This document shows positions 6,192 to 30,368 of a DNA stretch of 64,000 bases, piece by piece; the stretch's first letter is position 1, and every line of letters begins with the position of its first letter. The notes beneath the pieces are model-generated. The model saw nothing but the letters and a program-made list of their open reading frames with translations, did no database searches and was not told the origin of the DNA. A program made the translations under genes and the position numbers. The stretch lies in NCBI GenBank assembly GCA_022710935.1, contig JAKLFY010000031.1:1857-65856 (forward strand), read 5' to 3'. Source of the stretch: Verrucomicrobiota bacterium. Its GTDB lineage: Bacteria > Verrucomicrobiota > Verrucomicrobiia > Limisphaerales > J093.

Positions 6192-7121
6192 ATGTCACGC
6201 AGACTCAGTGCCATCGCCCCCGATTGGTGGGACTACACGACGCTGGATGAGGAGATCATTCGGGCCGCCGCCCGGCTCACGCCGGAGAAGATGCTGCGGC
6301 TTGCGCGTCCGGGCTTCAAAGTGGTGTTTTATGACACGCTCGAGAGCTTCTACCTGGCGGAAGCGCTCGAGTACATTGACGCCTGGCGCCAGTCGACCGA
6401 CGACAATCCGGTGGGGATCTGCGGGCCGATCGGCCCGACCGAGCAGCTTCCCCTGGTCGCCCAGATCGTCAATACCCTCGACCTCGACATCCGCTCCGCG
6501 CATTTCTGGGGCATGGACGAATGGTACCTCGATGGTCGCGAGGCGCCGCTGGACCATCCGCTCTCGTTCGAACGGGCCGACCGCGCGCTCTGCTTCGATC
6601 GCATCCGCAAGAATCTCCGGATGCCCGACGCCCACCTCCACTTCCCGAAGGCCGACACGGCGCCATATCGGCGGAGCTGGGACGGCGTGCGTTGCGCTGT
6701 CATGCAGGGCGGCCAGGGCGACGTGAAGCATTGGGCCTTCAACGATCCGCCGCGGCGCCGGGGCAAGTACAAGGACCAGCCGCCGTCGCCGGCGGAATAC
6801 CGGAAGCTGGCGACCCGTGTGGTGGATTTGCATCCATTGACGGTGGCGCAGAATGCCCGCACCTCGGGAGGCGGCAACATCGCGTTGGTGCCCACGCAAG
6901 CCTTGAGTGTCGGCCCGGTCGAGACATGGAAGGCCGAGAAAGTGTCGATCTGGCATGCCGGCAACCACGACAACCCATTCGGCCAGCGGTTGACAGCATT
7001 CATGATTGCGGAGCGGATCGCCGACGCGGCGGTGCCGATGTCCCTGCTCGCCGACCATCCGAACGTCCAGTTTAACTACTACCGCCGGGGCATCGGGACA
7101 TGCGACGTGGAGATGCACTGA
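6192..7121 (+). CDS. glucosamine-6-phosphate deaminase/isomerase-like (NagB/6-phosphogluconolactonase superfamily) protein
   Basis: Motifs GMDEW and [15 protein letters not shown] in a 309-aa ORF starting at ATG 6192. Its last 22 nt overlap the next gene's start. Confidence 0.6.
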
Positions 7122-8164
7122 GACCGGCCGAGTCTTCGGGTTCGAACGGCTCGCGCCGGGATTTCCTGCGCAGGAACCTGCAGGCGAGCGGTCTGCTGGG
7201 GGCTGTGGGCGCGTTGGCGGCGTCCGGACCCAATGTCCGGGCCGCCCGTAGCAGCGCCGAGAACCCGTTCGCCTATGACGTCGGCAAGTTCGAGCGGACG
7301 GATCCCAAGTTCATTCACTACGAGGAGACGGCCCGGTTCAAGTCGCCCCGTCCCGAACCGCGGCGGCTTGCGCTGGGGCCGGAGGGCGCGCTCCACGTGG
7401 CCGCCGGCGACTCGGTCGTGCGTCTGGGGGAGGGCGGCGGGGTCGACTTCGAGATTGCGCTCGCCGGGCCGGCGCAGTGTCTGGGTGTGGCCAGGGACGG
7501 GCTTCTCTACGTCGCGCTGCGCGATCATATCGAGGTCTTCGATGCCAGGGGCCAGCGGACGGCTGTCTGGAGTTCGCCGGTGTCGAAGACATGGCTGACC
7601 GGCGTGGCGGTGGGCGAGGACGGTCTTTTTGCGGCGGATTCCGGCGGTCGCGCGGTGTTGCGGTACGATCGCTCGGGCCGGCTTCTGGGGCGGATCGGCG
7701 AGCAGGACAAGGAGCGCGGCATTCCCGGTTTTGTGCTTCCGAGTCCGTTCCTCGATGTCGAACTGCATCGCGACGGTCTCCTGCGGGTGAACAACCCCGG
7801 CAGGCACCGGGTTGAACTGTACACGGCGTCGGGCGATCTCGAACTGGCGTGGGGGAGACCGACGGCGGCAATCGACGGTTTTTGCGGCTGCTGCAATCCG
7901 ATCAATCTGGCGACGCTGCCTGACGGGCGCTGCGTGACCTGCGAGAAGGGGCTGCGGCGCGTGAAGGTTTACAGTGCCCTGGGCGAGTTCGAATGCGTCG
8001 TTTCCGGAGCGGAGTCGTTTGCCCAGAGCGTGCCCCCGGGCGTCAGCATGGCGAAGGCCGCGCTGGATGCGGTGGCTGATGCGCGGGGCCGCATCTTCAT
8101 ACTCGATCCGCTGGCGGGGGACATCCGCGTGATGGCCCGCAAGCGCGAAGGAGCTTCCTCATGA
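7100..8164 (+). CDS. Tat-exported NHL-repeat beta-propeller protein with a C-terminal Cys cluster
   Basis: Twin-arginine signal [26 protein letters not shown]. Repeated NHL-like blades are visible ([24 protein letters not shown]). The Cys cluster is [25 protein letters not shown]. Confidence 0.65.
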
Positions 8165-8730
8165 CGCCTCGATCTCCAGGAGAGGGCCCGGTGAGTCGCC
8201 GCAATTTCCTGCGCAACGGGGCGCGGGTGGCGGCCCTGACGGGCGTGGGCGCGGTGGTTGGGACCCTTGTGCACCGCACGAGCAGTCAGACCACCGTCTG
8301 GCAGATCGATCCCTTGAAGTGTCTGCGCTGCGGGCGTTGCGCGACCGAGTGTGTGCTCGATCAATCGGCGGTGAAGTGCGTGCATTCGTACGATCTTTGC
8401 GGCTACTGCGAGCTGTGCACCGGCTATTTCGTGCCTGAGCCCAATGCCCTCAACACGGGCGCGGAGAACCAGCTCTGCCCGACGGGCGCCATCCAGCGCA
8501 AGTACATCGAGGATCCGTATTACGAGTACACCATCGACGAGGCGCTGTGCATCGGATGCGGCAAATGTGTCGAGGGGTGCAGCCGGTTCGGCAACGGCTC
8601 GCTCTACCTTCAGGTGCGCCAGCATCTCTGCCTCAATTGCAGCGAATGTGCCATCGGGCGGGTCTGCCCGGGCGACGCCTTCCGCCGCGTGCCGGTGAGC
8701 CAACCGTATTTGCTCAAGACCTCGCACTGA
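8161..8730 (+). CDS. Tat-signal 4Fe-4S polyferredoxin (NapG/MauM-like)
   Basis: Tat motif SRRNFLRNGARVAALTG. Several Cys motifs are present (CLRCGRCATEC, CIGCGKCVEGC, CLNCSECAIGRVCP). The ATG at 8161 overlaps the previous stop (ATGA). Confidence 0.75.
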   Translation: MTPRSPGEGPVSRRNFLRNGARVAALTGVGAVVGTLVHRTSSQTTVWQIDPLKCLRCGRCATECVLDQSAVKCVHSYDLCGYCELCTGYFVPEPNALNTGAENQLCPTGAIQRKYIEDPYYEYTIDEALCIGCGKCVEGCSRFGNGSLYLQVRQHLCLNCSECAIGRVCPGDAFRRVPVSQPYLLKTSH

Positions 8731-8737
8731 GCCGCGC

Positions 8738-10237
8738 ATGAGGGACGATACGCCACGAGGTCTCGGAGGGGGCGCCAAAAGGCCGTCTGCCGGTCCGGAC
8801 ACCGCTCAACGCGGGAAGTCGCACTCGATGGACCTCGACATTGAGAGCGGCGTTGAAGCGCCGCTCTCGAAGCGCTGGCTCTGGCCCGCATTCCTCGCGT
8901 TGGCAATTGTCTGGGTGTGCGGCGGGACGGCGGCCCTGGGCGAGGCGCGGTTCCCTCCGCCAGAGTTCGAAAGCGGGCATGCGCTGCCCTTGACCGCGAC
9001 GCCGAGCCCGCGGTCTCTGGCCATGCAGCACGTCGACGTGGCGGCGCTCGTGGGGGCGCTTGGGTTGGCGTGTTACCTGGTGCATCGGCGACGGTCGCGA
9101 CGGGGCATCATTGCGCTGTCCCTGTTCTCGCTGATCTACTTCGGGTTCTACCGCGAGGGATGCATCTGCGCGATCGGGGCGGTGCAGAACGTGGCCTTGG
9201 CCTTGTGCGATGCGAGCTACGCGCTGCCCATGACGGTGCTCGTTTTCTTCTTTGCGCCTTTGGTGGTGGCGTTGTTTGCCGGACGGACGTTTTGCGCCGC
9301 GGTGTGTCCCCATGGAGCGCTGCAGGATCTGGTCTTGATCAAGCCGGTGAAGGTGCCCGCCTGGCTCGACCACGCTTTGAGCGTGGTGCCGTTCCTCTTT
9401 CTCGGGGCCGGTCTCGCCTTTGCGGCGACCGGCAGCGCGTTTATCATCTGCCGCTACGACCCTTTTGTGCCGCTCTTTCGACTGACCGGGAGCGCGACGC
9501 TGCTGACTTTGGGCGGGCTCTTTGTCCTGGCGAGCCTCTTTATCGGGCGCCCGTACTGCCGGTTCCTCTGCCCGTATGGGGCGTTGTTGCGCCTGGCGGC
9601 GCTCGCCTCGAAATGGCGGGTGCGCATCACCCCGGACTTCTGCACCCAATGCCGCCTCTGCGAAGAGGCCTGTCCCTACGGTGCGATTCGCGAGCCAGCG
9701 CTCACGTCGACCACGCCGCCGGTCCTGGTCCCGGCCCGGCGGCGCCTTGGCCGGCTGCTGCTCCTGCTGCCGGTCGCTTTGTTTGTCGGCGGCTGGGTGG
9801 GGTCCAAGCTGAGCGTTCCATTCTCGAAAGTGCACCCGACCGTCGCCCTGGCGGAGCGCTACGCCGATCCCAACAAGCCAACCGTGATGCCCATCCCGGC
9901 CACGCCGGACAGCCTCGCGTTGGGGCGCGCCGAGCGGGATGCGCCGCAGTTGGTTGCGGCCGCTGTGGACATTCGCCGCCGATTCGTTCTGTCCGGCTGG
10001 CTCTTCGGCGGTTGGACTGTGCTGGTGGTTTTTGCGAAGCTGATCGGCTTGTCCGTGCGACCGGATCGAACCGACTTCGAGCCGGATCGGGGCGCCTGCG
10101 TGGCGTGCGCGCGCTGTTTCATGGCGTGTCCCAACGAGCGGGTGCGGCTCGGGCTCCTGCCTGCGTCCGCCATTCCGACCCGCCCCGGACCGGGACTTGG
10201 AACCGGCCCGACGGCGGCTGGAACGAAACGGGATTGA
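8738..10237 (+). CDS. NapH/MauN/NosR-type integral-membrane 4Fe-4S protein
   Basis: Two CxxxCP motifs (FCAAVCPHG, YCRFLCPYG), two CxxCxxCxxxCP motifs (CTQCRLCEEACP, CVACARCFMACP) and multiple TM helices. An alternative start is the ATG at 8828 (MDLDIES). Confidence 0.75.
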   Translation: MRDDTPRGLGGGAKRPSAGPDTAQRGKSHSMDLDIESGVEAPLSKRWLWPAFLALAIVWVCGGTAALGEARFPPPEFESGHALPLTATPSPRSLAMQHVDVAALVGALGLACYLVHRRRSRRGIIALSLFSLIYFGFYREGCICAIGAVQNVALALCDASYALPMTVLVFFFAPLVVALFAGRTFCAAVCPHGALQDLVLIKPVKVPAWLDHALSVVPFLFLGAGLAFAATGSAFIICRYDPFVPLFRLTGSATLLTLGGLFVLASLFIGRPYCRFLCPYGALLRLAALASKWRVRITPDFCTQCRLCEEACPYGAIREPALTSTTPPVLVPARRRLGRLLLLLPVALFVGGWVGSKLSVPFSKVHPTVALAERYADPNKPTVMPIPATPDSLALGRAERDAPQLVAAAVDIRRRFVLSGWLFGGWTVLVVFAKLIGLSVRPDRTDFEPDRGACVACARCFMACPNERVRLGLLPASAIPTRPGPGLGTGPTAAGTKRD

Positions 10238-10252
10238 AGCGCCTCGAGTCGC

Positions 10253-12061
10253 ATGGCTGCAACGAGTCAAACCCCGCCGGTGAACGCCCCCGAAGCGCGA
10301 CGCGCAGCGCGCCTTTTTTGGATCACGGCAGCGATCGCCGCGATTTTCTGCGTCGGCGTCATCATCGCGCTGGTGATTCGACATGTTCAGTCGAGAGTGG
10401 ACGATCCGCTCAAGTCGCGGGAGTTGATCGCGCTCAAGGCCAGGCTGCTCGAGACCCCCCAGGACGAGCAGCTCAAGGAACAGATCCGCGCCCTGGATCT
10501 GCGGCTGCGCCAGGTGTACTTCCGGCAGATCGCTTTTCAGGCTGCGGGGGCATGGCTCCTGTTGGCGGGCGGCGCGCTGCTGGTCTGGTCGGCGCGCCAG
10601 GCGGCCCGACTCGAGGCCCAGGTCTACTGCCCGCGCCTGGTCACGGACGCCGCGGAGCGGCAGGATCGGCTCGCCGGGCGCGCGCGGCGAGCCGTCATCG
10701 GCATGGGCGCCTTGGCGGGTTTGGGTCTCGTCGCGTTGGCGTTGTCGAGCGGGACAGCCCTTCCCGAGCGTCCGGACCAGATCGGGAAGTTCCTGGCCAG
10801 GCTCGGAGGCGAGGAGGGCGAGGAGGCGTCCGGTCCGATGCCCGCGGCTCTGTTTGCGGCGAACTGGCCGCGCTTTCTCGGTCCGACGGGCAATGCGTAC
10901 GCGAGCAACGGCGTGCCGTTCGAGCCGTGGGATGTGGCGACGGGCGCCGGCATCCTGTGGCGCGCCAGTGCCACCAACCAGGGGTTCAATTCGCCCATCG
11001 TCTGGAGTAACCGCGTCTTTCTCTCAGGCGCCGAGCAGCAGCAAAGGGAGGTGTTTTGCTATGACGCGGACAGCGGGGCGCTCGTCTGGCGTCGGCCCGT
11101 CGCCAACATTCCAGGCAGCCCGGCGCAGTTGCCCGAGGTCGCCGAGGGCACGGGCCTGGCCGCGCCGTCCATGGCGACCGATGGCCGGCGGGCATTCGTG
11201 ATTTTCGGCAACGGGGATCTGGCGGCCTTCCGTTTCGACGGCACGCTGGCGTGGGCCAAGCATCTGGGCGTGCCCAAGAACGCGTACGGGCATGCCACGT
11301 CGCTTGTCCCCTGGCAGGACCGCCTGTTGGTCCAGCTCGATCAAGGCCAGGCCGAACAGAACCGTTCGCGCCTCTACGCCTTCGATGGCGCGACGGGGCG
11401 AATCGTGTGGGAACGGACGCGCGCGGTTCCGGAGTCGTGGGCCACGCCGTGCGTCGCGGACACGCCGGTCGGCCCGCAGATCATCACGCTTGGCGGCCCC
11501 TGGGTGATTGCTTACGCGGCGATGGATGGCGCCGAGTTGTGGCGCGGCGAAGTCCTGATGGGCGAGATCGCCCCTTCGCCCATTTACGTCGGCGGCCTGG
11601 TCCTGACACCGAGCCCGATGGACAGACTGGTGGCGCTGCGTCCCGACGGGCAGGGCAACGTTACCCAGAGCCACGTGGCCTGGACGGCCGAGGACAACAT
11701 CCCGGACATCACCAGCCCTGCCAGCAACGGCGAGCTTGTGTTCCTGGCGACCACGTACGGGACCTTGACCTGTTACGACGCCGGGAGCGGCGAGAAGCAA
11801 TGGGAACAGGAGCTCGAAATCGAGATCAACGCGACCCCCGCCATCGCGCGGGACCGTCTGCTCGTCCTCGGCAAGAAGGGCGAGGTCCTGATCGCCAAGG
11901 CGGCGCGCGAATTCAAGGAAGTGGCCCGTTTCGACATGGGCGAACCCATTCTCGCCAGTCCCGCTCTGCTGTCGGACCGGCTGTTTATCCGCACCACGAA
12001 GACCCTGTTCTGCATCGGTGCGAAGGCGGCGCAATCCAAGGCGCCCGAGAAACAACCGTGA
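10253..12061 (+). CDS. membrane-anchored PQQ-like (BamB-type) beta-propeller repeat protein
   Basis: Three N-terminal hydrophobic helices are followed by repeated blades of the form ...GALVWRR..., ...GRIVWER..., ...GAELWRG..., ...GEKQWEQ... Confidence 0.65.
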   Translation: MAATSQTPPVNAPEARRAARLFWITAAIAAIFCVGVIIALVIRHVQSRVDDPLKSRELIALKARLLETPQDEQLKEQIRALDLRLRQVYFRQIAFQAAGAWLLLAGGALLVWSARQAARLEAQVYCPRLVTDAAERQDRLAGRARRAVIGMGALAGLGLVALALSSGTALPERPDQIGKFLARLGGEEGEEASGPMPAALFAANWPRFLGPTGNAYASNGVPFEPWDVATGAGILWRASATNQGFNSPIVWSNRVFLSGAEQQQREVFCYDADSGALVWRRPVANIPGSPAQLPEVAEGTGLAAPSMATDGRRAFVIFGNGDLAAFRFDGTLAWAKHLGVPKNAYGHATSLVPWQDRLLVQLDQGQAEQNRSRLYAFDGATGRIVWERTRAVPESWATPCVADTPVGPQIITLGGPWVIAYAAMDGAELWRGEVLMGEIAPSPIYVGGLVLTPSPMDRLVALRPDGQGNVTQSHVAWTAEDNIPDITSPASNGELVFLATTYGTLTCYDAGSGEKQWEQELEIEINATPAIARDRLLVLGKKGEVLIAKAAREFKEVARFDMGEPILASPALLSDRLFIRTTKTLFCIGAKAAQSKAPEKQP

Positions 12062-14595
12062 AACCGCCCGTCTCGACGATTCACAGTGCGCCCCTGGCCG
12101 GACCCGACTCGGCGGCCAATCCGCCCGGTTCGGTGGATCTGGCTTTTGTGGACGCAGCGGTCGAGCGGTTGGGGCGGACGCCCGCGGCCCTGATCCCGAT
12201 TCTGCAGGCCGTGCAGGGGCATTACGGCTATCTGCCCGCGCGCGCTCTCGAGCGGATTGGTGAGATTACGGCGATCACGCCGGCGGCGATCACCGGCGTG
12301 TCGACCTTCTACGACATGTTCCGGCACGCGCCGGTCGGGCGGCACCTCGTCCGCGTCTGCCACGGCACGGCCTGCCATGTCACCGGCTCCGAGCGGGTCG
12401 AGGACGCGCTCCGCCGGCAGTTGCGGATCCCGGACGGAGACGATACGGATCCGGACCGGCAATTCACGATCGAGCCGGTGGCGTGTCTGGGATGCTGCAC
12501 CCTGGCGCCGGTGGTCAGGATTGGCGGCAGCACGTTCGGCCACACCACCGCCGAGAAGGTCCCTCAACTCCTGCGCGATTTCCTCGAAAGCCAGCGGGCC
12601 CTCGGCGGCTCGGCGCGGTCGACGGAGGATCTCAAGGCGCGCCCCGGTCGCGCGATCGAGATCCATGTGGGCCTGGGCTCGTGCTGCATGGCGAAAGGCA
12701 GCGACCGGCTGTTTCACGCGCTCGTGGATCACGCCGAGCGCTGCGGCGGCAGCGTCGTGGTCAAGCGGGTGGGCTGTGTGGGGATGTGCCATCGCACGCC
12801 GTTGGTCGAGGTGGCCGAGGCCAACGGGCGCAGCACGTTCTACGCGGGGGTGCAACCGGGGAACGCCGCCGCCCTGCTCGAGCGGCATCTGCGTCCGCGC
12901 GCCTGGCTCGCGCGCGTGAGCCGCTTCTGGGAGAATGCCATCGACCAGGTGCTCGTCGATCGCACCGAGCCGGACCAGGTCCGGTCGTGCGCCCTCGATC
13001 TGCGGGAGGGGAGCGTCTCGGCCTTCCTCGGTAAGCAGGTGCACATCGCCACCGAACACTTCGGCAAGCTCGATCCCCTCGACCTCGACGAGTACCTGGC
13101 GCATGACGGATTTATCGCCCTCCGCCGCTGTCTGGCCGGCCTCGACGCGCGGGCGAGGCCGACGCCTCTCGACGCACCGGCGCCGCACACAGACGCGGAC
13201 TCCGCCCCGGGCGCTCAGCCCCCGGGAAACGCCCTTTCCCCAGAGCGTCCGCCGCTGTCTCCCGAAGAGATCATCGATGCCATCGTGGCGTCAGGACTTC
13301 GGGGGCGCGGAGGGGCCGGTTTCCCGAGCGGACGCAAATGGCAGGTGGCGCGTCAGCAGCCGGGCGCGGTGAAGTATGTTGTCGGGAACGGGGACGAGGG
13401 CGATCCGGGGGCGTTCATGGACCGGATGATTCTCGAGTCGTTTCCGTATCGGGTGATCGAGGGCCTGGCGATCGCGGCCGTCGCCATTGGAGCGCATGAG
13501 GGCGCGTTCTACATCCGGCACGAGTATCCGCTGGCCGTGCGCCGGGTTCGGGCGGCGATTCTCGAACTCGAACGGCGCGGCTGGCTGGGGGACGCGCTGT
13601 GCGGATCGCCCTATCCTTTGCGAATCACCATCAAGGAGGGGGCGGGAGCATTCGTGTGCGGCGAGGAGACGGCGCTGATCCAGTCCGTGGAAGGGCGTCG
13701 GGGCATGCCCAGCCTGCGCCCGCCGTTCCCGGCGCAATCCGGCTTGTGGGGGAAGCCGACCCTGATCAACAACGTCGAGACCCTGGCGATGGTGCCGTGG
13801 ATCATCCGGCACGGTCCGGAGGCGTTTGCCGCCATCGGCACTGACACCAGCAAGGGGACGAAGGTGTTCGCCCTGGCCGGAAGGGTGCGCCGGGGCGGCC
13901 TGATCGAGATACCGATGGGCACGACCGTGCGCGAGATTGTCGAGGACATCGGCGGGGGCGTCGAGGCGGGACGCCGTTTCAAGGCTGTGCAGATTGGCGG
14001 GCCCTCGGGGGGATGCGTCCCTGCGCGGCTGGCGGACACGCCGGTCGATTACGAGTCGCTCCAGCGCGTGGGTGCGATCATGGGGTCGGGCGGGCTGGTG
14101 GTGCTGGACGATTCCACCTGCATGGTGGACATCGCCCGCTATTTCCTCCAGTTCACACAGGATCAGTCGTGCGGCAAGTGCACCTTCTGCCGCATCGGCA
14201 CCAAGCGCATGCTCGAGATCCTCGATCGCCTCTGCGGCGGACGCGGCCACAAGCAGGATCTGGACGAACTCGAGTCGTTGGCCGTTCAGATCAGTCGGGG
14301 CAGCCTCTGCGGCCTGGGCAAGACCGCGCCCAACCCGGTGTTGACCACCCTGCGCTATTATCGGGATGAGTACGAGGCGCACATCCAGGGGCGGTGTCCG
14401 GCGGGCAAGTGCCTGCCGCTGATCAAGTATCACATCACCGCCGACTGCACCGGCTGCACGCTGTGCGCCCAGCATTGCCCCGTCGATGCCATCCCGATCG
14501 CGCCCTACGAACGGCACGTCATCAACCTCGATTTGTGCACGCGCTGCGATTCCTGCCGCCGCGTCTGCCCCCATCACGCCGTGGAGGTGACATGA
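12058..14595 (+). CDS. fused NuoE-like / thioredoxin-like [2Fe-2S] / NuoF-like (FMN, NADH) / 2x[4Fe-4S] subunit
   Basis: The GTG at 12058 overlaps the previous stop (GTGA). The NuoE part is VCHGTACHV...ACLGCC. A second Trx-like ferredoxin follows (GSCCMAKG...CVGMCH). The NuoF motifs are GRGGAGFPSGRKW, GDEGDPGAF, CGEETALI and SCGKCTFCR. The C-terminus carries CTGCTLCAQHCP and CTRCDSCRRVCP. Confidence 0.85.
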   Translation: MKPPVSTIHSAPLAGPDSAANPPGSVDLAFVDAAVERLGRTPAALIPILQAVQGHYGYLPARALERIGEITAITPAAITGVSTFYDMFRHAPVGRHLVRVCHGTACHVTGSERVEDALRRQLRIPDGDDTDPDRQFTIEPVACLGCCTLAPVVRIGGSTFGHTTAEKVPQLLRDFLESQRALGGSARSTEDLKARPGRAIEIHVGLGSCCMAKGSDRLFHALVDHAERCGGSVVVKRVGCVGMCHRTPLVEVAEANGRSTFYAGVQPGNAAALLERHLRPRAWLARVSRFWENAIDQVLVDRTEPDQVRSCALDLREGSVSAFLGKQVHIATEHFGKLDPLDLDEYLAHDGFIALRRCLAGLDARARPTPLDAPAPHTDADSAPGAQPPGNALSPERPPLSPEEIIDAIVASGLRGRGGAGFPSGRKWQVARQQPGAVKYVVGNGDEGDPGAFMDRMILESFPYRVIEGLAIAAVAIGAHEGAFYIRHEYPLAVRRVRAAILELERRGWLGDALCGSPYPLRITIKEGAGAFVCGEETALIQSVEGRRGMPSLRPPFPAQSGLWGKPTLINNVETLAMVPWIIRHGPEAFAAIGTDTSKGTKVFALAGRVRRGGLIEIPMGTTVREIVEDIGGGVEAGRRFKAVQIGGPSGGCVPARLADTPVDYESLQRVGAIMGSGGLVVLDDSTCMVDIARYFLQFTQDQSCGKCTFCRIGTKRMLEILDRLCGGRGHKQDLDELESLAVQISRGSLCGLGKTAPNPVLTTLRYYRDEYEAHIQGRCPAGKCLPLIKYHITADCTGCTLCAQHCPVDAIPIAPYERHVINLDLCTRCDSCRRVCPHHAVEVT

Positions 14596-16223
14596 ACGAC
14601 ACCGAAAACGGCACTCCGCGCCAGACGCCCGAATTCGAGATCGTGATCGACGGGCGTCCGGTGACCGTGCGCGAAGGGGAGACCGTGCTGGCTGGCGCGC
14701 GCCGCTTGGGACTCGATATCCCCACGCTCTGCTACCTCCCGAAATGCGGTCCCTTGACCTCCTGTCTGGTTTGCCTGGTCAAGGTCCGCGCGGGGGGGGG
14801 AGGCGGCGGGCGTCTTGTGCCGTCGTGCGGCCTCGAAGTCCAACCGGGCATGGTGATTGAAAGCGAGACCGACGAGGTGCGGACGGCGCGGCGCACGGCG
14901 CTCGAACTGCTTTTCAGCGATCACGTCGGCGATTGTCTCGCGCCCTGCCATCGCCTCTGCCCCTTGCACCTCAACATCCCGGTGATGCTTCGTCAGGTCG
15001 AGACCCAGGCCTGGGACGCGGCAACCAGCACTGTGCTGCGGGCGCTGCCGATGCCCGCGATCCTCGGGCGGCTTTGCCATCACCCCTGCGAGAACGGCTG
15101 CCGCCGCGGGACACACGATCAGCCCACCGCGATTCGCGATGTCGAACGCCTGGTCGCCGACCGGGACCTGGCATCGTCGAGTCCGTTCCTGCCGCCGCGC
15201 AAGCCCGCGACGGGGAAATCGGTGGCGATCATCGGGGCGGGACCGACTGGGCTTGCCGCGGCCTTCTTTCTCCTGCGAGAGGGGCACGGCGTCACAATCT
15301 TCGATCGCCATGACAAACCGGGTGGGAGCCTGCGCATCGAGGTGGCTGGCGGCGCGTTGGATTCGGCGACGCTTGACGCCGAAATGAACCGGCTGCGGGC
15401 CCTCGGCGCCCAGTTCAGCCTCGGGGTCGAGTTGGGGCGCGACGAGACGCTCGAAGGCCTTTTGCCGCGCTTTGACGCCGTGCTTGTCGCTTGGGGCCAA
15501 AAGGACAAGGCCCGCGACAGCCTGGGTCTGACAACCACCCCAACCGGCATCCGGGCCGATCCCCTCACCGCGGCGACTTCGCGGTCAAAGGTCTTCGCCG
15601 CGGGAGCCGCCATCCGCCCGATCAAGCACCTCGTTCGCGCCATGAGCGAGGGACGGTCCGCCGCCCTCGCCGTCCATCGCACCCTGGTCGGACTGAAAGC
15701 GGGGGGCGAACAACGGCTTTTTTCGAGTGTGATGGGACGTTTGAGCGCCCCCGAGCTGGGGCTTTTCCTGATCGGGCATAACCCCGCTCCCCGCATCTCC
15801 CCCGGGCAGGGTGTGCTGCGCGGTTTCACCGTTCTCGAAGGCCGGGGCGAAGCGGGCCGTTGTCTGCACTGCGACTGCCGTGCCGAAGGAAACTGCCAAC
15901 TGCAGCATTACGGCGAGTTGTACGGCGTCGAGCCGGGCCGGTTTCGTTCCCAACGCCGCCCCTTCGAACAGCATCTCGAACGCGGCGAGATCGTGTTCGA
16001 GCCGGGCAAGTGCATCCTGTGCGGCATCTGCGTCAGGATCACGGAGCTGGCGCGGGAACCGCTCGGGCTGACGTTCATCGGGCGCGGATTTGACGTGCGG
16101 GTGGCTGCGCCGTTGGACCGTGCGATTGCCGACGGCTTGCAGAAAGTGGCCCGGGAATGTGTCGAGGCCTGTCCGACGGGCGCTCTGGCCTTCAAGCATG
16201 ACGTCCGGCCTCCCGAGCCATAG
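14592..16223 (+). CDS. [2Fe-2S] ferredoxin domain fused to a GltD-like FAD/NAD(P)-binding oxidoreductase with a C-terminal Fe-S domain
   Basis: The ATG at 14592 overlaps the previous stop (ATGA). The N-terminus is NuoG-like and 2Fe-2S (TLCYLPKCGPLTSCLVCLV). Next come a GltD-like CHHPCENGCRRG and the dinucleotide fold VAIIGAGPTGLAAAFFL. The C-terminus carries CILCGICV and ECVEACPTGA. Confidence 0.8.
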   Translation: MNDTENGTPRQTPEFEIVIDGRPVTVREGETVLAGARRLGLDIPTLCYLPKCGPLTSCLVCLVKVRAGGGGGGRLVPSCGLEVQPGMVIESETDEVRTARRTALELLFSDHVGDCLAPCHRLCPLHLNIPVMLRQVETQAWDAATSTVLRALPMPAILGRLCHHPCENGCRRGTHDQPTAIRDVERLVADRDLASSSPFLPPRKPATGKSVAIIGAGPTGLAAAFFLLREGHGVTIFDRHDKPGGSLRIEVAGGALDSATLDAEMNRLRALGAQFSLGVELGRDETLEGLLPRFDAVLVAWGQKDKARDSLGLTTTPTGIRADPLTAATSRSKVFAAGAAIRPIKHLVRAMSEGRSAALAVHRTLVGLKAGGEQRLFSSVMGRLSAPELGLFLIGHNPAPRISPGQGVLRGFTVLEGRGEAGRCLHCDCRAEGNCQLQHYGELYGVEPGRFRSQRRPFEQHLERGEIVFEPGKCILCGICVRITELAREPLGLTFIGRGFDVRVAAPLDRAIADGLQKVARECVEACPTGALAFKHDVRPPEP

Positions 16224-16348: not shown

Positions 16349-17575
16349 ATGGTGTTCAAAAGGACCATGAGCGATAGTGGGCTCGTGACAACGCTGCGCA
16401 ATTTGTTGTGCCTGACCTTGGTGGCGGGAGGTTTGGCTTTTGCGTTCGGTGCAAGCCCGGCCCAGAACGACGGTGATGTGCCGGCCGAGGAAGCGCCCGC
16501 CCCGCCCGAACCGGGATCAGAAGATCCGGCGACGCCGGCTGCCCCTGTCGAATCCGAGGACACCCCTCAGCCCGAAGCGCCTGAGGAACCCGGGCAACCG
16601 ATGGAACCTAAGGAGGACGGGGGGCCTGAGGCTGCTCCAGCGCCCAACGTCGAGGAGAAACCGCCGCGGGCTGATGGCAGGAGCCTTCCCAACCCGACAC
16701 CGCCTGCGCAGCCAGTGCCTGTCCAACCGGCGCCCGCCCAGTCCAAGCCTGCCCAGCCGGCGCCTGCCGAGCCGGACGTGACTTCGGCTCCGACCGCGGG
16801 CCCGGCGCAAGATTCTCCCTACCAGTCGATCGTTCTGCGCAACGCATTCGGTCTCAAGACGCCGCCTCCCCCTGCGCCTCCGCCCGAACAACCGGCCCAA
16901 CAGGTCTCGCCCTCGGCGCTGAAGTTGTCCGGGATCATCACCTTGTTGGGCGGGCGCCACGCCACCTTCGTCCTTCAGGAGCCCGGCAAGCCGCAGATCA
17001 ACTCCGATCTGGTCGCCGAAGGTGACAAGGACTGGCTGATCACGAATCTCCACGTCCTGCAGATCGACGAGCGGGCGGGGGCAGTGCGCGTTGCCTACGC
17101 AGGAAAGGAGATGACTCTCGACTTCGTGAACAACGGGCTCAAGCCTCCGGCGGCGCCCGCGGCCGCTCCCGGGGCTGTGCCTGGGCGCCCAGGCCAGCCG
17201 CAGCCCGGGGGCACGACACCCGCTGCGGCTGCCGCCCGGGCGACTTGGACCAGACCCGGGGCGGCGGGGACTGCGCCCTCGATCGCCCCCGGGGGGACGC
17301 CGACTCTGACTACGCCCAACCCGAGCGGCCTGCAGTCCATTCCCGTAAGGCCGACCCGCCTCTCTTCCGGAGCCGTTTCGGGAATCAACGCCCCGACGCA
17401 GTTTGGCGGCGGAGGCGAGGCCGTGCAGCCCCCTCAGCCGGCCCTTGCGCCCGAACAGCAGATGCTCCTGATGCGCGCCCAGGAGGAAATCTCGCGCCGT
17501 CAGGGGGTGCCCTTCCCGCCCAGCCCGCCCATCCCCGGGTTGAACAATGCGCCGCCGATGCCCGGCGCGCAGTGA
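16349..17575 (+). CDS. secreted proline/alanine-rich low-complexity protein
   Basis: Signal-like N-terminus LLCLTLVAGGLAFAFGASPAQ. Long PAPxxP-type tracts surround one globular segment (YQSIVLRNAFGL...VAYAGKEMTLDF). Confidence 0.55.
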   Translation: MVFKRTMSDSGLVTTLRNLLCLTLVAGGLAFAFGASPAQNDGDVPAEEAPAPPEPGSEDPATPAAPVESEDTPQPEAPEEPGQPMEPKEDGGPEAAPAPNVEEKPPRADGRSLPNPTPPAQPVPVQPAPAQSKPAQPAPAEPDVTSAPTAGPAQDSPYQSIVLRNAFGLKTPPPPAPPPEQPAQQVSPSALKLSGIITLLGGRHATFVLQEPGKPQINSDLVAEGDKDWLITNLHVLQIDERAGAVRVAYAGKEMTLDFVNNGLKPPAAPAAAPGAVPGRPGQPQPGGTTPAAAAARATWTRPGAAGTAPSIAPGGTPTLTTPNPSGLQSIPVRPTRLSSGAVSGINAPTQFGGGGEAVQPPQPALAPEQQMLLMRAQEEISRRQGVPFPPSPPIPGLNNAPPMPGAQ

Positions 17576-18199: not shown

Positions 18200-19576
18200 A
18201 TGAATACCTCGGATCCGACTTCACCCGCAACTGAATCGAAGTGTTCCCGACGCCATTTCCTGCGGGGGTCATCGGCCGCCTTGGCCGGCGCGGCATTCGC
18301 CGAGTTCCCGTTCGTGTCTGGCGCCCGCGCGGAGGCGGACATGCCGATCAGGATCGGGGTGATCGGCTGCGGCGGACGCGGGACGGGGGCGGTGCTTGAC
18401 GCCCTGGGCGCGGCCACCCAGGTCATTTACCCGAGCGCGGGCTATCACACCGAAGACGTGGCGTCGAATGCGACGGTCGCCCACAAGAACCTCGAGGTGG
18501 TCGCCTTGTGCGACGTGTTCATGGACCGCGTCAACGCCTGCCGCCAGAACCTGAGGAAGCTCGGCGTGAACATCCCGGATGCAATGTGCTTCGACGGGTT
18601 CGATGGGTACAAGAAGCTGCTCGCGATTCCCGAAATCAACTATGTGATCCACGCCACCTCGCCCCATTTCCGCCCGCTCCACGTCAAGGCCGCCGTCGAG
18701 GCCGGCAAGAACGTCTTCATGGAAAAACCCGGCGCCGTCGACGGCCCCGGTGTGCGGACCTTGCTCGAAGCGGGGGAAATCGCCATGGCGAAGAACCTCG
18801 GCATTGCGGCGGGGACCCAGCGCCGGCACCGCCCCAGCTACAACGAGGCGATCCGCCGCATCCACGATGGGCAGATTGGCGAGATCCAATGCCTGCGCTG
18901 TTATTGGAACGGCGGCGTGATCTGGGTGATCGAGAGGACGGATGCGATGAGCGACATGGAATGGCAGCTTCGCAACTGGAACTACTTCACCTGGACCAGC
19001 GGGGATCACATCGCCGAGCAGCACGTGCATAACCTCGATATCATGAATTGGGCGATGGGCGCCCACCCCGTGAAGGCCTACGGCCAGGGCGGACGCCAGG
19101 CGCGCCGGCACCCGATCCACGGCAATATCTACGACCACTTCGCCGTCGAGTTCGAGTATCCCAACGGCGTGCGCATGTTCAGCCAGTGCCGCCAGATGGA
19201 CGGCACCGAAGGGCGGGTGGGCGAAGTGATCCAGGGAACCAAAGGCGTGGCGATGCTCAATGACGGCAACAATCTCCTGACGATCCGCGGCGGCGGCAAC
19301 TGGCGCAGCCGCGGGATCGAGGATGGCAATCCTTACCAGAAAGAGCATCAGAATCTCATCGCCAGCATCCGCGCGGGCAAACCGATTAACGAAGCCAAGA
19401 GCCTGGCCGAAGGCACCCTGACGGCTGTCATGGGACGCGAGTCGGCCTACACGGGCCGGACTGTCGAGTGGGACGAAGCGCTTCACTCGAAACTGCGGTA
19501 CGGCCCCGACAAGTACGAGTTTGGCAGCCTCCCCTTCCCGGAAGTCCCGGTCCCGGGCAAGCACAAGTTCTCCTAG
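18200..19576 (+). CDS. Tat-exported Gfo/Idh/MocA-family oxidoreductase
   Basis: Tat signal SRRHFLRGSSAALAGAAFA. The Rossmann N-terminus is IRIGVIGCGGRGTGA, with family-typical length and core. Confidence 0.8.
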   Translation: MNTSDPTSPATESKCSRRHFLRGSSAALAGAAFAEFPFVSGARAEADMPIRIGVIGCGGRGTGAVLDALGAATQVIYPSAGYHTEDVASNATVAHKNLEVVALCDVFMDRVNACRQNLRKLGVNIPDAMCFDGFDGYKKLLAIPEINYVIHATSPHFRPLHVKAAVEAGKNVFMEKPGAVDGPGVRTLLEAGEIAMAKNLGIAAGTQRRHRPSYNEAIRRIHDGQIGEIQCLRCYWNGGVIWVIERTDAMSDMEWQLRNWNYFTWTSGDHIAEQHVHNLDIMNWAMGAHPVKAYGQGGRQARRHPIHGNIYDHFAVEFEYPNGVRMFSQCRQMDGTEGRVGEVIQGTKGVAMLNDGNNLLTIRGGGNWRSRGIEDGNPYQKEHQNLIASIRAGKPINEAKSLAEGTLTAVMGRESAYTGRTVEWDEALHSKLRYGPDKYEFGSLPFPEVPVPGKHKFS

Positions 19577-19645
19577 CCCGCATGTTTCATGGATTTGTGA
19601 CCACGGCGAAGCTGAGAACTTCAGAATGCGGACCGCTGCGGGCTA
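19574..19645. repeat. TAGCCCGCAT-type inverted-repeat element, copy b
   Basis: TAGCCCGCA (19574-19582) and TGCGGGCTA (19637-19645) are reverse complements. The left end supplies the TAG stop of the oxidoreductase gene. Confidence 0.65.
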
Positions 19646-19683
19646 GAAAGGCCCGCTTCACACCAATCCCAGACCTCACGCTC

Positions 19684-20694
19684 ATGACAACACAACCCCG
19701 TTCCGACCTCCTCCGCATCCGTCCGTTGGCCGGCCTGTTCGCGGCCTGGGCCCTGCTCCTCGCGCTTGGCACCGGCTGCGGACCCCGCGAATCCGGCGAA
19801 TCCGGCGGCTCGACGCCGGACTCGAAACCCCGCATCGCGCTGATCATGAAATCGCTGGCGAACGAGTTTTTCCTGACCATGGAGAACGGCGCCCGCACCC
19901 ATCAGAAGAACCATGCGACCGAGTACGATCTTCTGGCCAACGGCATCAAAGATGAACTGGACGTCGCCCGCCAGATCGACCTGGTCGAGCAGATGATCGC
20001 CCAGCGCGTCGCCGCCATCGTGATTGCCCCCGCCGACTCGAAAGCGCTCGTCACCGTCTGCCGCAGGGCCCAGGAGGCCGGCATCATCGTGGTCAATATC
20101 GACAACAAATTCGACGACGCTGTTCTGGCCGAGAAAGCGGCCCGCATCCCGTTTGTCGGTCCGGACAACCGCAAAGGCGCGCGGCGCGTGGGAGATTACC
20201 TGGCCCGCCGGCTCCAGCCCGGCGATCCCGTGGCGATCATCGAAGGGCCGCCCAACGCCTTCAACGCCCAGCAGCGCAAGCTCGGCTTCACCGAGGCGGT
20301 CCAAGCCGCCGGCCTGCGCCTGGCCAGTTCGCAATCCGGCTATTGGGAAACGGACAAGGCCAACCAGGTCGCCGCCGCCATCCTGACCGAGCATCCGGAC
20401 TTGAAGGCGTTCCTCTGTTCGAACGACAGCATGGCCCTCGGGGCAATCGCGGCCCTGCGCGCGGCGGGCAAAGCGGACACGGTGCTCGTCGTCGGATACG
20501 ACAACATCTCGGCCGTCCAGGCGCTGCTCAAGGAAGGGAAGATCCTCGCGACCGCCGACCAGCACGCCGATCAGATCGCCGTCTTCGGCATCGAGTACGC
20601 CCTGCAACTGCTCGAAACCAAGAGCGCGCCCGCCGACCGCGAAACACCCGTCGACCTCGTCACCGCGCAAGGCGTCGAACCCCCGGCGCCCTGA
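19684..20694 (+). CDS. rbsB: sugar (ribose-type) ABC transporter substrate-binding lipoprotein
   Basis: Lipobox LLLALGTGC after the ATG at 19684. The fold is periplasmic-binding type I (IALIMKSLANEFF, VGPDNRKGA, NDSMALGA). Confidence 0.8.
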   Translation: MTTQPRSDLLRIRPLAGLFAAWALLLALGTGCGPRESGESGGSTPDSKPRIALIMKSLANEFFLTMENGARTHQKNHATEYDLLANGIKDELDVARQIDLVEQMIAQRVAAIVIAPADSKALVTVCRRAQEAGIIVVNIDNKFDDAVLAEKAARIPFVGPDNRKGARRVGDYLARRLQPGDPVAIIEGPPNAFNAQQRKLGFTEAVQAAGLRLASSQSGYWETDKANQVAAAILTEHPDLKAFLCSNDSMALGAIAALRAAGKADTVLVVGYDNISAVQALLKEGKILATADQHADQIAVFGIEYALQLLETKSAPADRETPVDLVTAQGVEPPAP

Positions 20695-20702
20695 TCCGCC
20701 CC

Positions 20703-22259
20703 ATGCCGGACGCCAGCCCTTTGCTCGAAGTCCGCGCCCTCGGCAAGCGCTACGCCGCGCCGGTGCTGATCGATGTCGATTTCGAGGTGCGCCGGGGCGA
20801 GGTGCACGCGCTGGTCGGGGAGAACGGCGCGGGCAAGAGCACCCTGTCGCGCATCATCGCCGGCCTCACGCTGCCCGACGCCGGCTCGATGACCTTCGAG
20901 GGCGCTCCCCATGCCCCGCGCACCAAACGCGAGGCCGAGCGCAGCGGGGTGCGCCTGGTCATGCAGGAGCTCAACCTCATCGGCAACCTCACCGTCGCTG
21001 AAAACATCTTCCTCGACGAACTGCCTCATCGCTGGGGCTGGATCCGGTACCGCGCCCTGCATGATCGGGCCCGGGCGGTGCTCGACCCCCTCGGGCTCGG
21101 CGCCCTGCATCCGGGCCGCCGCGTCAGCGCGCTGGGCATCGGCCAGCAGCAGATGATCGAGATCGCGGCCGGCCTCTCCCAGCGCTGCAGCCTCCTCATT
21201 CTCGACGAGCCGACCGCCGCCCTCATGGACGCGGAGATCGAGCATCTCTTTGCCCAGATCAAACGCCTCAAGGCCGCCGGCACCAGCATCCTCTACATCT
21301 CGCATCGGCTCGAGGAAATCCAGCGGATCAGCGACCGCGTCAGCGTCCTGCGCGACGGCCAGATGATCGCCTCGCGTCCAACCCGCGAGATCTCCCTCGA
21401 TGAAATCGTCCGCCTGATGGTCGGACGCGAGCTCGAACAGTTGGGCGAACGGCGCCCAGCCGCGCCCGGCCCCGTCGCCCTCCGCGTGGCCGGACTCTCC
21501 CGCAAGCCGGTCGTCAAGGATGTCAGCTTCGAGGTCCGGCGCGGCGAAATCCTCGGGTTCGCCGGCCTGATGGGATCCGGACGCACCGAGACGATGCGGG
21601 CCGTGTTTGGTGCGGATCCGCCCGACGCCGGGGAGATCTACGTGGGCGGCGCGACGCAGCCGGCGCGCCTGCGCTCACCCAAAGAGGCGATCGCCCAGGG
21701 CCTGGCTCTTCTGACCGAAGACCGCAAAGGGCAAGGCCTGCTCCTGCCCTGGTCGATCCGCGCGAACCTGAGCCTGCTCTGCCTCCCCGAGATCAGCGGC
21801 CTCGGCGGATGGATCCGGCGCGCCGCCGAGCACGACCAGGCCGGACGCTGGGCGCGCGCGCTGGGCGTCCGCTGCCATTCGCTCGAGCAGCGGGTGGCCG
21901 AATTGAGCGGAGGCAACCAGCAGAAGGTGGTCATCGCCAAATGGCTCGCCCGCAACTGCGACGTCCTCATCTTCGACGAGCCCACGCGCGGGATCGACGT
22001 CGGGGCGCGGCGGGACATCTACCGCCTGATCACGGATCTGGCCGACCAGGGCAAGGCCATCATCCTCGTCTCCTCGGACCTGCGTGAGTTGCTCGCCCTC
22101 TGCGATCGGATCGCCGTCATGTCGGCCGGGCGCATCGCGGCCACATTCGACCGCGGTTCGTGGAGCCAGGACCAGATCATGACCGCCGCCTTGAGCGGAT
22201 ACCTCGGGGGGAACGCATCGGCGTCTGCCTCGGAGACAACGGTTGCCGACGCCTCATGA
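20703..22259 (+). CDS. rbsA: sugar ABC transporter ATP-binding protein (duplicated ATPase)
   Basis: Walker A motifs GENGAGKST and GLMGSGRT, signature LSGGNQQK, and two ABC cassettes. The start is the ATG at 20703. Confidence 0.85.
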   Translation: MPDASPLLEVRALGKRYAAPVLIDVDFEVRRGEVHALVGENGAGKSTLSRIIAGLTLPDAGSMTFEGAPHAPRTKREAERSGVRLVMQELNLIGNLTVAENIFLDELPHRWGWIRYRALHDRARAVLDPLGLGALHPGRRVSALGIGQQQMIEIAAGLSQRCSLLILDEPTAALMDAEIEHLFAQIKRLKAAGTSILYISHRLEEIQRISDRVSVLRDGQMIASRPTREISLDEIVRLMVGRELEQLGERRPAAPGPVALRVAGLSRKPVVKDVSFEVRRGEILGFAGLMGSGRTETMRAVFGADPPDAGEIYVGGATQPARLRSPKEAIAQGLALLTEDRKGQGLLLPWSIRANLSLLCLPEISGLGGWIRRAAEHDQAGRWARALGVRCHSLEQRVAELSGGNQQKVVIAKWLARNCDVLIFDEPTRGIDVGARRDIYRLITDLADQGKAIILVSSDLRELLALCDRIAVMSAGRIAATFDRGSWSQDQIMTAALSGYLGGNASASASETTVADAS

Positions 22260-23248: not shown

Positions 23249-23250
23249 CA

Positions 23251-30115: not shown

Positions 30116-30159
30116 GGAGATCTGCTTTCTGGTTTGGTTCTTCCGGGCAAGGTCCAAAC

Positions 30160-30234
30160 CCCGTGTGAGCTGTGTCGTGACACGCATACTTGCTCCTTGA
30201 GTGGAATGGCAAAGCGCCGACAGTTGTGACAGAG
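30160..30234 (-). promoter_or_regulatory. conserved upstream leader core, copy 1
   Basis: The block CTGTGTnGTGACACGCATnCT...GGAATGGCAAAGCG...TTGTGACAGAG is shared with 39520-39589 and 40808-40883. Each copy lies upstream of a minus-strand surface-protein ORF. Confidence 0.6.
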
Positions 30235-30251
30235 GTCGCGGACCAAAGGCA

Positions 30252-30368
30252 ATGGAAGAGGACGCGTCCAAGAGTGGCGGCAGCCCCGCGTTTCCGAACA
30301 CGCAGTGGACGGTCATCGTCGACGCCGTTTCCAGCAGACCGGAGCCGGTGCAGGAGGCGCCCACCTAG
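30252..30368 (+). pseudogene. 5' fragment (38 codons) of an ECF sigma factor gene, paralogous to 41660-42406
   Basis: It translates to MEEDASKSGGSPAFPNTQWTVIVDAVSSRPEPVQEAPT*. The intact gene reads MMEDDASKNGGSSAFPNTQWTVIVDAVSSHPERVREAL. The DNA is near-identical over about 90 nt and then diverges into a TAG. Confidence 0.8.

Follow-up and report, generated by a model that had tools for sequence, protein, structure and literature searches.

What becomes of the electrons of NADH when the Fe-S flavoprotein that would accept them is encoded in one operon with a NapH-like membrane protein and two exported beta-propellers, and with no recognisable terminal enzyme? This question is raised by a run of genes in a 64,000-nucleotide stretch of DNA from a Verrucomicrobiota bacterium (contig JAKLFY010000031.1 of assembly GCA_022710935.1, positions 1,857 to 65,856), referred to below as the window. 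A sequence-only reading of the window had described seven genes forming an electron conduit from NAD(P)H to the periplasm. We found that the conserved unit comprises six genes, which encode, in this order, an NHL propeller, a polyferredoxin exported by the twin-arginine translocation (Tat) pathway, a NapH-like protein, a PQQ_2 propeller, a NuoE-NuoF fusion and a truncated NfnA-like subunit (genes 2 to 7, gene 1 being the open reading frame (ORF) that precedes them). Our preferred reading, which we hold tentatively and at somewhat less than an even chance, is that these six proteins form a single membrane-spanning redox complex that passes electrons from NADH through Fe-S clusters to a periplasmic thiol-based site. 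The core of the earlier proposal, a conduit that lacks a recognisable terminal enzyme, thus stood up to the findings named as able to overturn it (genes not co-conserved, Tat signals or topology unsupported, a known accessory set explaining every member), while its gene count, its nicotinamide cofactor and its view of the Tat signal on the NHL protein had to be revised.

Conservation and layout of the operon

Related loci were located by a pattern scan with the NHL alignment, keeping one genome per species, and the best 80 loci of at least 590 matching species were taken as the locus set. The seven window proteins were compared with these 80 loci by tblastn, and the denominators given here are the loci with enough downstream sequence. 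Almost all of the 80 loci belong to the Verrucomicrobiota and the Planctomycetota (Pirellulales, Phycisphaerae and Sedimentisphaerales). Downstream of the NHL gene, gene 3 was found in 76/76 loci, gene 4 in 67/67, gene 5 in 60/60, gene 6 in 54/57 and gene 7 in 47/51, and the full six-gene order was kept in 47 of the 51 loci with room for it. Because this order is conserved across two phyla, it is far more than chance would produce, and the conservation of the gene neighbourhood, which the sequence-only reading had proposed as a test, is evident in both groups. Where genes 6 and 7 are missing (three loci), gene 5 is succeeded by unrelated transport genes; a substitute electron-input module was sought among these and rejected, as nothing but the transport genes was present.

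The first ORF, previously described as a NagB-like gene and counted as a member of the unit, did not retain either designation. No homologue of it was found beside the cluster in any of the 80 loci, and its 309-residue product scored only 16 bits against the NagB model, which has a cut-off of 236.9, gave E=0.39 against NagB in the PDB, and matched no Pfam family in the profile searches that were carried out for all seven proteins (Pfam and NCBIfam models, E<=0.01). It appears to be an insertion at the start of the operon that is peculiar to this lineage. The 22-nt overlap of this ORF with the start of the NHL gene is likewise restricted to this lineage.

In the window, where the G+C content of the operon region is 64-69%, seven consecutive ORFs lie on the + strand between 6192 and 16223, packed as had been reported. 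The window matches one Verrucomicrobiota metagenome-assembled genome (MAG) and two metagenome contigs of the Joint Genome Institute (JGI) from the digester samples 3300010429 and 3300009771. These public contigs are identical to it, and their gene calls coincide with the ORFs for genes 1, 2, 6 and 7 in all three and for gene 5 in two. In the sequence itself, ATG 7100 sits 22 nt within the first ORF, stop and start codons overlap as ATGA at 8161-8164, GTGA at 12058-12061 and ATGA at 14592-14595, with the latter two 4-nt overlaps linking genes 5/6 and 6/7, and gaps of 7 nt and 15 nt precede ATG 8738 and position 10253, respectively. The public calls agree with the overlap at 7100, the overlaps at 12058-12061 and 14592-14595, and the 15-nt gap. 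The letters of the other two tight junctions are also present, but the start codons that define them are uncertain. In the case of gene 3, an AAGGAG Shine-Dalgarno sequence lies 7 nt ahead of ATG 8161, the public calls start at GTG 8191, and a Shine-Dalgarno sequence is present at both candidates. In the case of gene 4, the short N-termini of orthologues and the public calls point to ATG 8828 (469 aa), which is probably the true start, in place of ATG 8738, and this would change the gap from 7 nt to 97 nt.

Annotation with profile models returned largely the domain content that had been described, and the apparent lack of a terminal enzyme was also upheld: a motif scan found no CxxCH heme motif in any of the seven proteins, and the profile searches gave no match to molybdopterin, copper or hydrogenase families. 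Neither the window nor the conserved flanks of the 80 loci contained a catalytic gene of the nap, nos or mau type, so a known accessory set of this kind does not account for the whole. The defence-system models of PADLOC gave no match.

From the Bfu module to the propellers

Judged by homology, genes 6 and 7 encode an Nfn/Stn-type module of the electron-bifurcating Bfu family, which is a more specific assignment than the NuoE/F fusion and GltD-like subunit recognised previously, even though the domains behind those names were indeed observed. The product of gene 6 consists of a NuoE-like [2Fe-2S] domain, a second thioredoxin-like domain, a NuoF domain with sites for flavin mononucleotide (FMN) and NADH, and a C-terminal 2x[4Fe-4S] domain, with profile scores of 166 bits for 2Fe-2S_thioredx (residues 32-174), 147 bits for Complex1_51K and 112 bits for NADH_4Fe-4S. 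Its best solved relatives are NfnB of an archaeal Nfn-Bfu enzyme (9n5u_B, 695 bits), StnB of Sporomusa ovata (8oh5_B) and NfnB of Caldicellulosiruptor (9bov_B), and the NuoF subunit of complex I follows well behind these Nfn/Stn proteins at ~340 bits. Gene 6 aligns to NfnB residues 7-146 and 149-595, the solved relatives spanning its N-terminal domain and its residues 400-845, and the alignment takes in the N-terminal domain that is missing from ordinary NuoF. It is the N-terminal thioredoxin-like and C-terminal 2x[4Fe-4S] domains that set bifurcating BfuB apart from its non-bifurcating homologues (Schut et al., PMC9304861), and the Bfu cofactor map has been refined in a further study (PMC11829005). 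Across 49 orthologues of gene 6, all cluster ligands are invariant, as are the GRGGAG motif of the FMN site, Cys101/106/143/147 of the [2Fe-2S] BfuC part, Cys705/708/711/751 of the B1 [4Fe-4S] cluster, Cys797-837, Cys210 and Cys240, while Cys209 and Cys244 are 88% conserved.

Gene 7 encodes a BfuA-type subunit with an N-terminal [2Fe-2S] domain (Fer2_4), a GltD-type 2x[4Fe-4S] domain, one Rossmann motif and C-terminal [4Fe-4S] motifs, and its Fe-S cysteines are invariant among orthologues. It matches the N-terminal ~680 residues of NfnA/StnC, the alignments to 9bov_A and 8oh5_C ending at about residue 677 of 1172-1178, and, ending at 543 aa, it is missing the formate-dehydrogenase-like C-terminal domain; the small-subunit models of glutamate synthase (GOGAT) gave it 126-136 bits against cut-offs of 448-483. 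An alignment with orthologues of ~700 aa that carry a GGGNTA motif revealed a clean deletion of ~146 residues in gene 7 and in all other short forms, which takes out the NAD(P)H-binding domain. This domain is deleted in most orthologues, including all those from Planctomycetota, and it is intact in the ~700-aa proteins of eight Verrucomicrobiota loci (L013, L017, L020, L021, L025, L026, L049 and L050). The aspartate of the GD motif, which belongs to the site for flavin adenine dinucleotide (FAD), is kept in 8/8 long forms and in 8/10 short Planctomycete forms, and has been lost from all 29 short Verrucomicrobiota forms, that of the window included. The sole clearly intact nicotinamide site in the window module is the FMN/NADH site of gene 6, and the input previously given as NAD(P)H should be NADH, since the GltD-like part has no NADPH domain in the window or in most orthologues. 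With the NADPH domain deleted and the FAD motif degenerate, this is no plain NADH/NADPH transhydrogenase, and the electrons must exit elsewhere. The Bfu module of the window is thus rewired.

A possible exit is provided by gene 4, whose product has ~8 transmembrane (TM) helices in an AlphaFold2 model with a predicted local distance difference test score (pLDDT) of 70. Its two CX3CP motifs (CAAVCP and CRFLCP) and two 4Fe-4S motifs of the form CxxCxxCxxxCP (CTQCRLCEEACP and CVACARCFMACP) are all invariant among orthologues, in agreement with what had been reported for it, and its core homology was also confirmed, as a profile of 24 orthologues aligned to Escherichia coli NapH over 144 columns with an hhalign probability of 95.6%. 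However, it scored far below the cut-offs of the NapH equivalog models (44.5 bits against 234 for NF007013 and 43.7 against 213 for TIGR02163), and the NosR model gave 34 bits against a cut-off of 1000. From the combination of ~44 bits against cut-offs of 213-234 with the hhalign result, we class the protein as a distant relative in the NapH/NosR superfamily and not as a NapH. Three cysteines that E. coli NapH lacks, Cys142, Cys144 and Cys238, are invariant in the family and are predicted from hydropathy to lie on the outer face, and the Fe-S motifs are predicted to be cytoplasmic. No solved relative of this fold was found by sequence or structure search of the PDB copy used.

The adjoining polyferredoxin (gene 3) has four CxxCxxC motifs and 17 cysteines, all of which are 100% conserved among its orthologues. 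The Tat signal attributed to it is well founded, since SRRNFLR is present in the window and the twin arginines are kept in 76/76 orthologues. BLASTP against E. coli NapG gave E=1e-5 over 115 residues, covering the signal and the first cluster motif, while the NapG model gave no match at E<=0.01.

The NHL protein (gene 2) was not matched by the Pfam NHL model at E<=0.01, although many of its homologues carry a precomputed Pfam NHL annotation. Its AlphaFold2 model (pLDDT 81) has 24 strands in six blades, and Foldseek matched this model to the NHL domains of TRIM2, Thin and Brat with probability 1.0 and TM-scores of up to 0.80. The structure search gave only generic domains of this kind (TRIM2, Brat, virginiamycin lyase and glutaminyl cyclase) and no functional clue. 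The family is large: 1184 representative clusters lie within E<=1e-30, and at the level of 50% identity it has ~1200 clusters. The members listed are unnamed or generically named; the best 240 homologues listed, including the few with a source name, are all of metagenome or MAG origin. Some Cys and Trp residues of the protein are invariant. C264 and C265 are 100% conserved, C262 is 95% conserved and replaced by T, S or Q in some members, and C281 is 79% conserved. The Tat motif described for this protein is also present (SRRDFLR), and was found in 45 of the 47 assessable Verrucomicrobiota orthologues, but it is specific to that phylum, the Planctomycetota proteins having an uncleaved hydrophobic TM anchor instead. 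This indicates that folding and cofactor loading before export are not a universal requirement of the propeller. A Tat-exported Fe-S cluster on its CxCC motif was considered and judged unlikely, since the Planctomycete orthologues have no Tat signal and some members lack the first cysteine. Apart from the ferredoxin clusters, the vicinal Cys264-Cys265 pair is the only conserved redox-capable feature found on the outer side.

The second propeller, encoded by gene 5, is membrane-anchored as described, with three predicted TM helices ahead of the PQQ_2 domain, and its propeller domain is predicted to be periplasmic. The pyrroloquinoline quinone (PQQ) dehydrogenase model TIGR03075 gave it 32 bits against a cut-off of 480, and no metal or cofactor motif was conserved in the propeller across 60 orthologues. 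The gene set taken from the window is incomplete with respect to many other loci, as an extra membrane-anchored PQQ_2 propeller of ~475 aa is encoded directly upstream of the NHL gene in about half of them; this type is absent from the 64-kb window. In one natural fusion (P0426, 816 aa), a propeller of the upstream type is joined to the NHL protein with a TM segment between them, suggesting that the propellers are tied together. The corresponding motif of this fusion is FQPCCNP, in which only the Cys-Cys pair is retained.

The proposed electron route and its alternatives

In the complex that we propose, the FMN of the fused BfuC-BfuB core would take electrons from NADH on the cytoplasmic side, and these would travel along the Fe-S chain of this core and the truncated NfnA-like subunit to the pair of [4Fe-4S] clusters that the NapH-like protein is predicted to have in the cytoplasm. 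The docking port on the Bfu side may be either the truncated BfuA or the C-terminal domain of BfuB that binds ferredoxin, and there is a precedent for such docking in the Nap system, where NapH is required for the attachment of the cytoplasmic Fe-S protein NapF to the membrane and also keeps NapG there (PMC5928378). The membrane would be crossed by way of the NapH-like protein, for which the two CX3CP pairs, the three extra outer cysteines and possibly a quinone are candidates, and the electrons would then enter the Tat-exported four-cluster ferredoxin for delivery to the NHL/PQQ_2 propeller assembly, where the vicinal Cys-Cys pair of the NHL protein would form the site. Thiol-based reduction of a periplasmic substrate is, from the residues conserved, the most likely end chemistry, because this Cys-Cys pair is the only universal redox-capable feature of the propeller assembly, and a disulfide, a persulfide or polysulfide, or a thiophilic metal or metalloid would be candidate substrates. 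Taken to its full extent, namely that a Bfu enzyme is hard-wired to the periplasm through a heme-free NapH-like protein, that NADH and possibly reduced ferredoxin drive a cysteine-based propeller reductase, and that this is a PVC-specific (Planctomycetota-Verrucomicrobiota-Chlamydiota) system for electron disposal or reductant export that has no characterised counterpart and is the first such wiring of a Bfu enzyme, the proposal becomes doubtful.

Several considerations weigh against the proposed complex. It has a purely computational basis, and no cultured carrier was identified among the NHL homologues listed. The CX3CP motifs of NapH and NosR have no assigned cofactor, and the membrane part of these proteins is thought to be quinol-oxidising (PMC5928378); the cofactor bridging the membrane is accordingly only putative here. 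Bfu genes are lacking beside the cluster in 3/51 loci, given which the membrane and periplasmic part may work with another donor, and the eight orthologues that keep the NADPH domain indicate that the input chemistry is not uniform. Furthermore, the propellers have no recognisable active site and could be scaffolds, or the flow could be inward, and the thiol end chemistry is suggested by just two adjacent conserved cysteines.

Four alternatives were weighed. The NapH-like domain might exchange electrons with the menaquinone pool and not act as a direct Fe-S wire, so that Bfu and NapH-like proteins together would be a non-pumping NADH (perhaps ferredoxin):quinone oxidoreductase, combined with a quinol-driven feeding of the periplasmic ferredoxin. 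The four-helix/CX3CP module of NapH, NosR and RdhC has been proposed to oxidise quinol (PMC5928378), hhalign supports the core homology of the NapH-like protein to this module, and membrane-bound, quinone-reducing Nuo-Bfu complexes have been predicted (PMC9304861). Nevertheless, no quinone site is recognisable from sequence, and the three extra invariant outer cysteines and the extra TM hairpin, neither of which is found in E. coli NapH, suggest a modified mechanism, and we therefore regard a quinone-linked system as rather unlikely. An inward flow, in which a periplasmic substrate is oxidised at the propellers and the Bfu core bifurcates the electrons to NAD+ and ferredoxin, would make the operon a periplasm-facing counterpart of the bifurcating hydrogenases and formate dehydrogenases. 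The full BfuBC cofactor set is conserved, including the ferredoxin-binding C-terminal clusters, and Bfu enzymes can run in both directions, typically linking a third substrate at about -400 mV to NAD and ferredoxin (PMC9304861, PMC11829005). We consider this direction improbable, since a catalytic metal site suited to a low-potential donor (H2, formate or CO) is absent and such donors are unlikely to be oxidised at a Cys pair. Thiol/disulfide couples, moreover, are too positive for NAD+ reduction without energy input.

The invariant Cys and Trp residues of the NHL protein would also fit a role in maturation or repair, in which the polyferredoxin/NapH-like pair, like MauM/MauN or NosR, supplies electrons only for the building or upkeep of a protein-derived or metal cofactor in a propeller whose real catalytic reaction is not the redox end-point of the conduit. 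NapG/NapH homologues occur in the mau gene cluster, and the heavy subunit of the mau dehydrogenase is a beta-propeller. NosR, similarly, sustains NosZ (PMC5928378). On the other hand, a 1400-residue NADH-oxidising Bfu module that is kept in >90% of loci would be a heavy investment for such a task, genes for MauA/MauB/MauG, NosZ or a flavinyl transferase are missing from the neighbourhood, and the propellers have no PQQ-dehydrogenase signatures, all of which make this role very unlikely. We give even less credence to a mere co-location of an Nfn-type transhydrogenase with a separate periplasmic module. The 3-4/51 loci that have no adjacent Bfu genes and the eight orthologues with a complete NADPH domain are compatible with it, but the gene order is kept across two phyla, genes 5 and 6 share a stop/start overlap, and the loss of the NADPH site from most orthologues rules out a transhydrogenase there.

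The proposed complex combines modules of known kinds, that is, a Bfu/Nfn core, a NapGH-type pair, and NHL and BamB-like propellers, while its members, by their sequences, fall outside NapH, NapG, GltD, NfnA (with its NADPH and Fdh-like domains), the PQQ dehydrogenases and NagB. NfnABC/StnABC from Caldicellulosiruptor saccharolyticus, Sporomusa ovata and Thermococcus sibiricus share with it the NuoE-like [2Fe-2S] subunit, the NuoF-like FMN/NADH subunit with thioredoxin-like and 2x[4Fe-4S] domains, and a BfuA with an N-terminal [2Fe-2S] domain, an inserted GltD-type Fe-S/flavin module and HydA/NuoG-type clusters. They differ in that the C and B subunits are fused here and that the A subunit has 543 aa instead of 960-1180 aa, having in the window no Fdh-like domain, no NAD(P)H-binding domain and no FAD GD aspartate. 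Besides soluble types, the catalogue of Bfu enzymes contains two membrane types that are predicted to pump protons, Nuo-Bfu and Mbh-Bfu (PMC9304861); neither a NapH-linked type nor Verrucomicrobia is mentioned in this catalogue or its supplement, and, in comparison with the types it contains, membrane and periplasmic partners of the present form are encoded only here.

The resemblance to NapG/NapH lies in a Tat-exported four-cluster ferredoxin that adjoins a polytopic protein carrying CX3CP motifs and cytoplasmic 4Fe-4S motifs, two of each. In contrast to Nap, there is no NapA, NapB, NapC or NapD, and the ferredoxin gene precedes the membrane protein gene, with a propeller gene ahead of both; in contrast to NapH, the membrane protein has two additional N-terminal helices, a TM hairpin that splits the cluster motifs, and the three extra invariant cysteines. 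NosR/NosGH and MauM/MauN have membrane proteins of the same superfamily that serve periplasmic beta-propeller enzymes (NosZ and the methylamine dehydrogenase heavy chain), but the FMN-binding periplasmic domain that is a feature of NosR, NosZ itself, the Mau structural genes and cytochromes are all missing here. The DsrMKJOP, Hmc, Tmc and Qrc complexes of sulfate reducers, as well as Rnf, likewise join redox pools through periplasmic Tat ferredoxin-like, membrane and cytoplasmic Fe-S/flavin parts, and in Rnf the NuoF-like RnfC and the polyferredoxin RnfB gave weak profile matches to window proteins. The membrane subunits of these complexes are, however, unrelated, and they use hemes, NrfD-type proteins or ion-translocating subunits, for which there was no family match among the seven proteins. 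DsbD/CcdA may be a functional analogue, since it brings cytoplasmic reducing power to periplasmic cysteine pairs, but DsbD does so through thiol-disulfide cascades from thioredoxin/NADPH and not through Fe-S clusters and NADH, and there is no sequence relationship to the operon.

A full-text literature search found no published description of the cluster, and this widespread, strictly syntenic operon thus appears to be an undescribed route for electrons to the periplasm. The sole lead in the literature to an NHL protein in electron transfer was UetHI of the cytochrome-based Uet pathway, which was set aside as not comparable, as there are no cytochromes here. If the six proteins do form one complex, the Bfu family would extend to the cell envelope, its partners so far being soluble or proton-pumping only, and the cytoplasmic Fe-S domain of the NapH/NosR fold, which has long lacked an explanation, would gain a concrete role. 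The carriers, which number at least 590 genomes at the species level in the Verrucomicrobiota and Planctomycetota, are abundant and mostly uncultured inhabitants of soils, sediments and digesters, and an electron sink or reductant-export route in them would alter the metabolic models of these groups. The natural variants, with or without the NADPH domain and with or without the propeller Tat signal, are suited to studying how a Bfu module is rewired.

Feature coordinates and neighbouring genes

Table 1. Positions in the 64,000-nt window of the operon genes and of the motifs discussed in the text.
Feature	Position	Strand	Remark
Gene 1, 309-aa ORF, earlier termed NagB-like	6192..7121	+	called as a gene on identical public contigs
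Gene 2, exported six-bladed NHL beta-propeller, 354 aa	7100..8164	+	AlphaFold model and Foldseek
Tat motif SRRDFLR, gene 2	7151-7171	+	
Conserved motif GFCGCCNP, gene 2	7877-7900	+	
Gene 3, Tat-exported NapG-like polyferredoxin, 189 aa (179 aa from GTG 8191)	8161..8730	+	Fer4 families
Tat motif SRRNFLR, gene 3	8194-8214	+	
Gene 4, polytopic NapH/NosR-superfamily Fe-S membrane protein	8738..10237	+	Fer4_5 x2 and Fer4
Extra invariant Cys, gene 4	9158-9169 (GCIC), 9446-9460 (ICRYD)	+	
CX3CP motifs, gene 4	9293-9310, 9557-9574	+	
4Fe-4S motifs, gene 4	9641-9676, 10097-10132	+	TM hairpin between
Gene 5, membrane-anchored PQQ_2 (BamB-like) beta-propeller, 602 aa	10253..12061	+	PQQ_2 86.7 bits
TM helices, gene 5, predicted by hydropathy	10322-10378, 10529-10585, 10691-10747	+	
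Gene 6, fusion of BfuC (NuoE-like [2Fe-2S]) and BfuB, 845 aa	12058..14595	+	Pfam and NCBIfam matches
FMN-site motif GRGGAG, gene 6	13303-13320	+	
C-terminal cluster motifs, gene 6	14446-14481, 14536-14571	+	
Gene 7, truncated NfnA/StnC-like BfuA subunit, 543 aa	14592..16223	+	best solved relatives 9bov_A, 8oh5_C, 9n5u_A
Sole Rossmann motif GAGPTG, gene 7	15234-15251	+	
NAD(P)H-domain deletion point, gene 7	~15516-15536	+	
Degenerate FAD GD motif VFAAGAA, gene 7	15591-15611	+	

No conserved flanking genes were found in the Verrucomicrobiota loci. Planctomycetota loci L064-L078 carry a LolD-like ABC ATPase gene and a gene for an 1100-aa duplicated FtsX permease upstream of the cluster, and a third PQQ_2 propeller gene downstream (for example, L070 4232-8265 and L076 10619-11935).

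In the window itself, the last operon gene is directly followed by a gene for a 408-aa Pro/Ala-rich protein (16349-17575, + strand) that has an N-terminal hydrophobic segment and no Pfam family, and that is not kept beside the cluster in other loci. About 2 kb downstream of the operon lies a gene for an oxidoreductase of the Gfo/Idh/MocA family with a Tat signal (18200-19576, + strand; Pfam TAT_signal and GFO_IDH_MocA), and this is followed by a sugar-type ABC uptake set, consisting of a periplasmic binding protein, a double ABC ATPase and a permease, and then a PfkB-family kinase (19468-24168, + strand). On the opposite strand, 26810-30364 encodes an 1184-aa protein with NosD/right-handed beta-helix and DUF11 domains, and 30465-39467 is a 3000-aa ORF; both products are likely to be giant surface proteins. 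Further along are two adjoining genes for large Ser/Thr protein kinases (42627-45845 and 46219-49278, both on the + strand), the first of which is fused to a WD40 propeller. Finally, a 237-aa protein encoded at 50161-50874 (+ strand) has the NADPH-dependent FMN reductase fold (FMN_red, 88.7 bits) and an N-terminal twin-arginine-type signal, RRHFIETAGVAAAAAGFLGSAAPAHA, and from these features it appears to be an exported flavoprotein.

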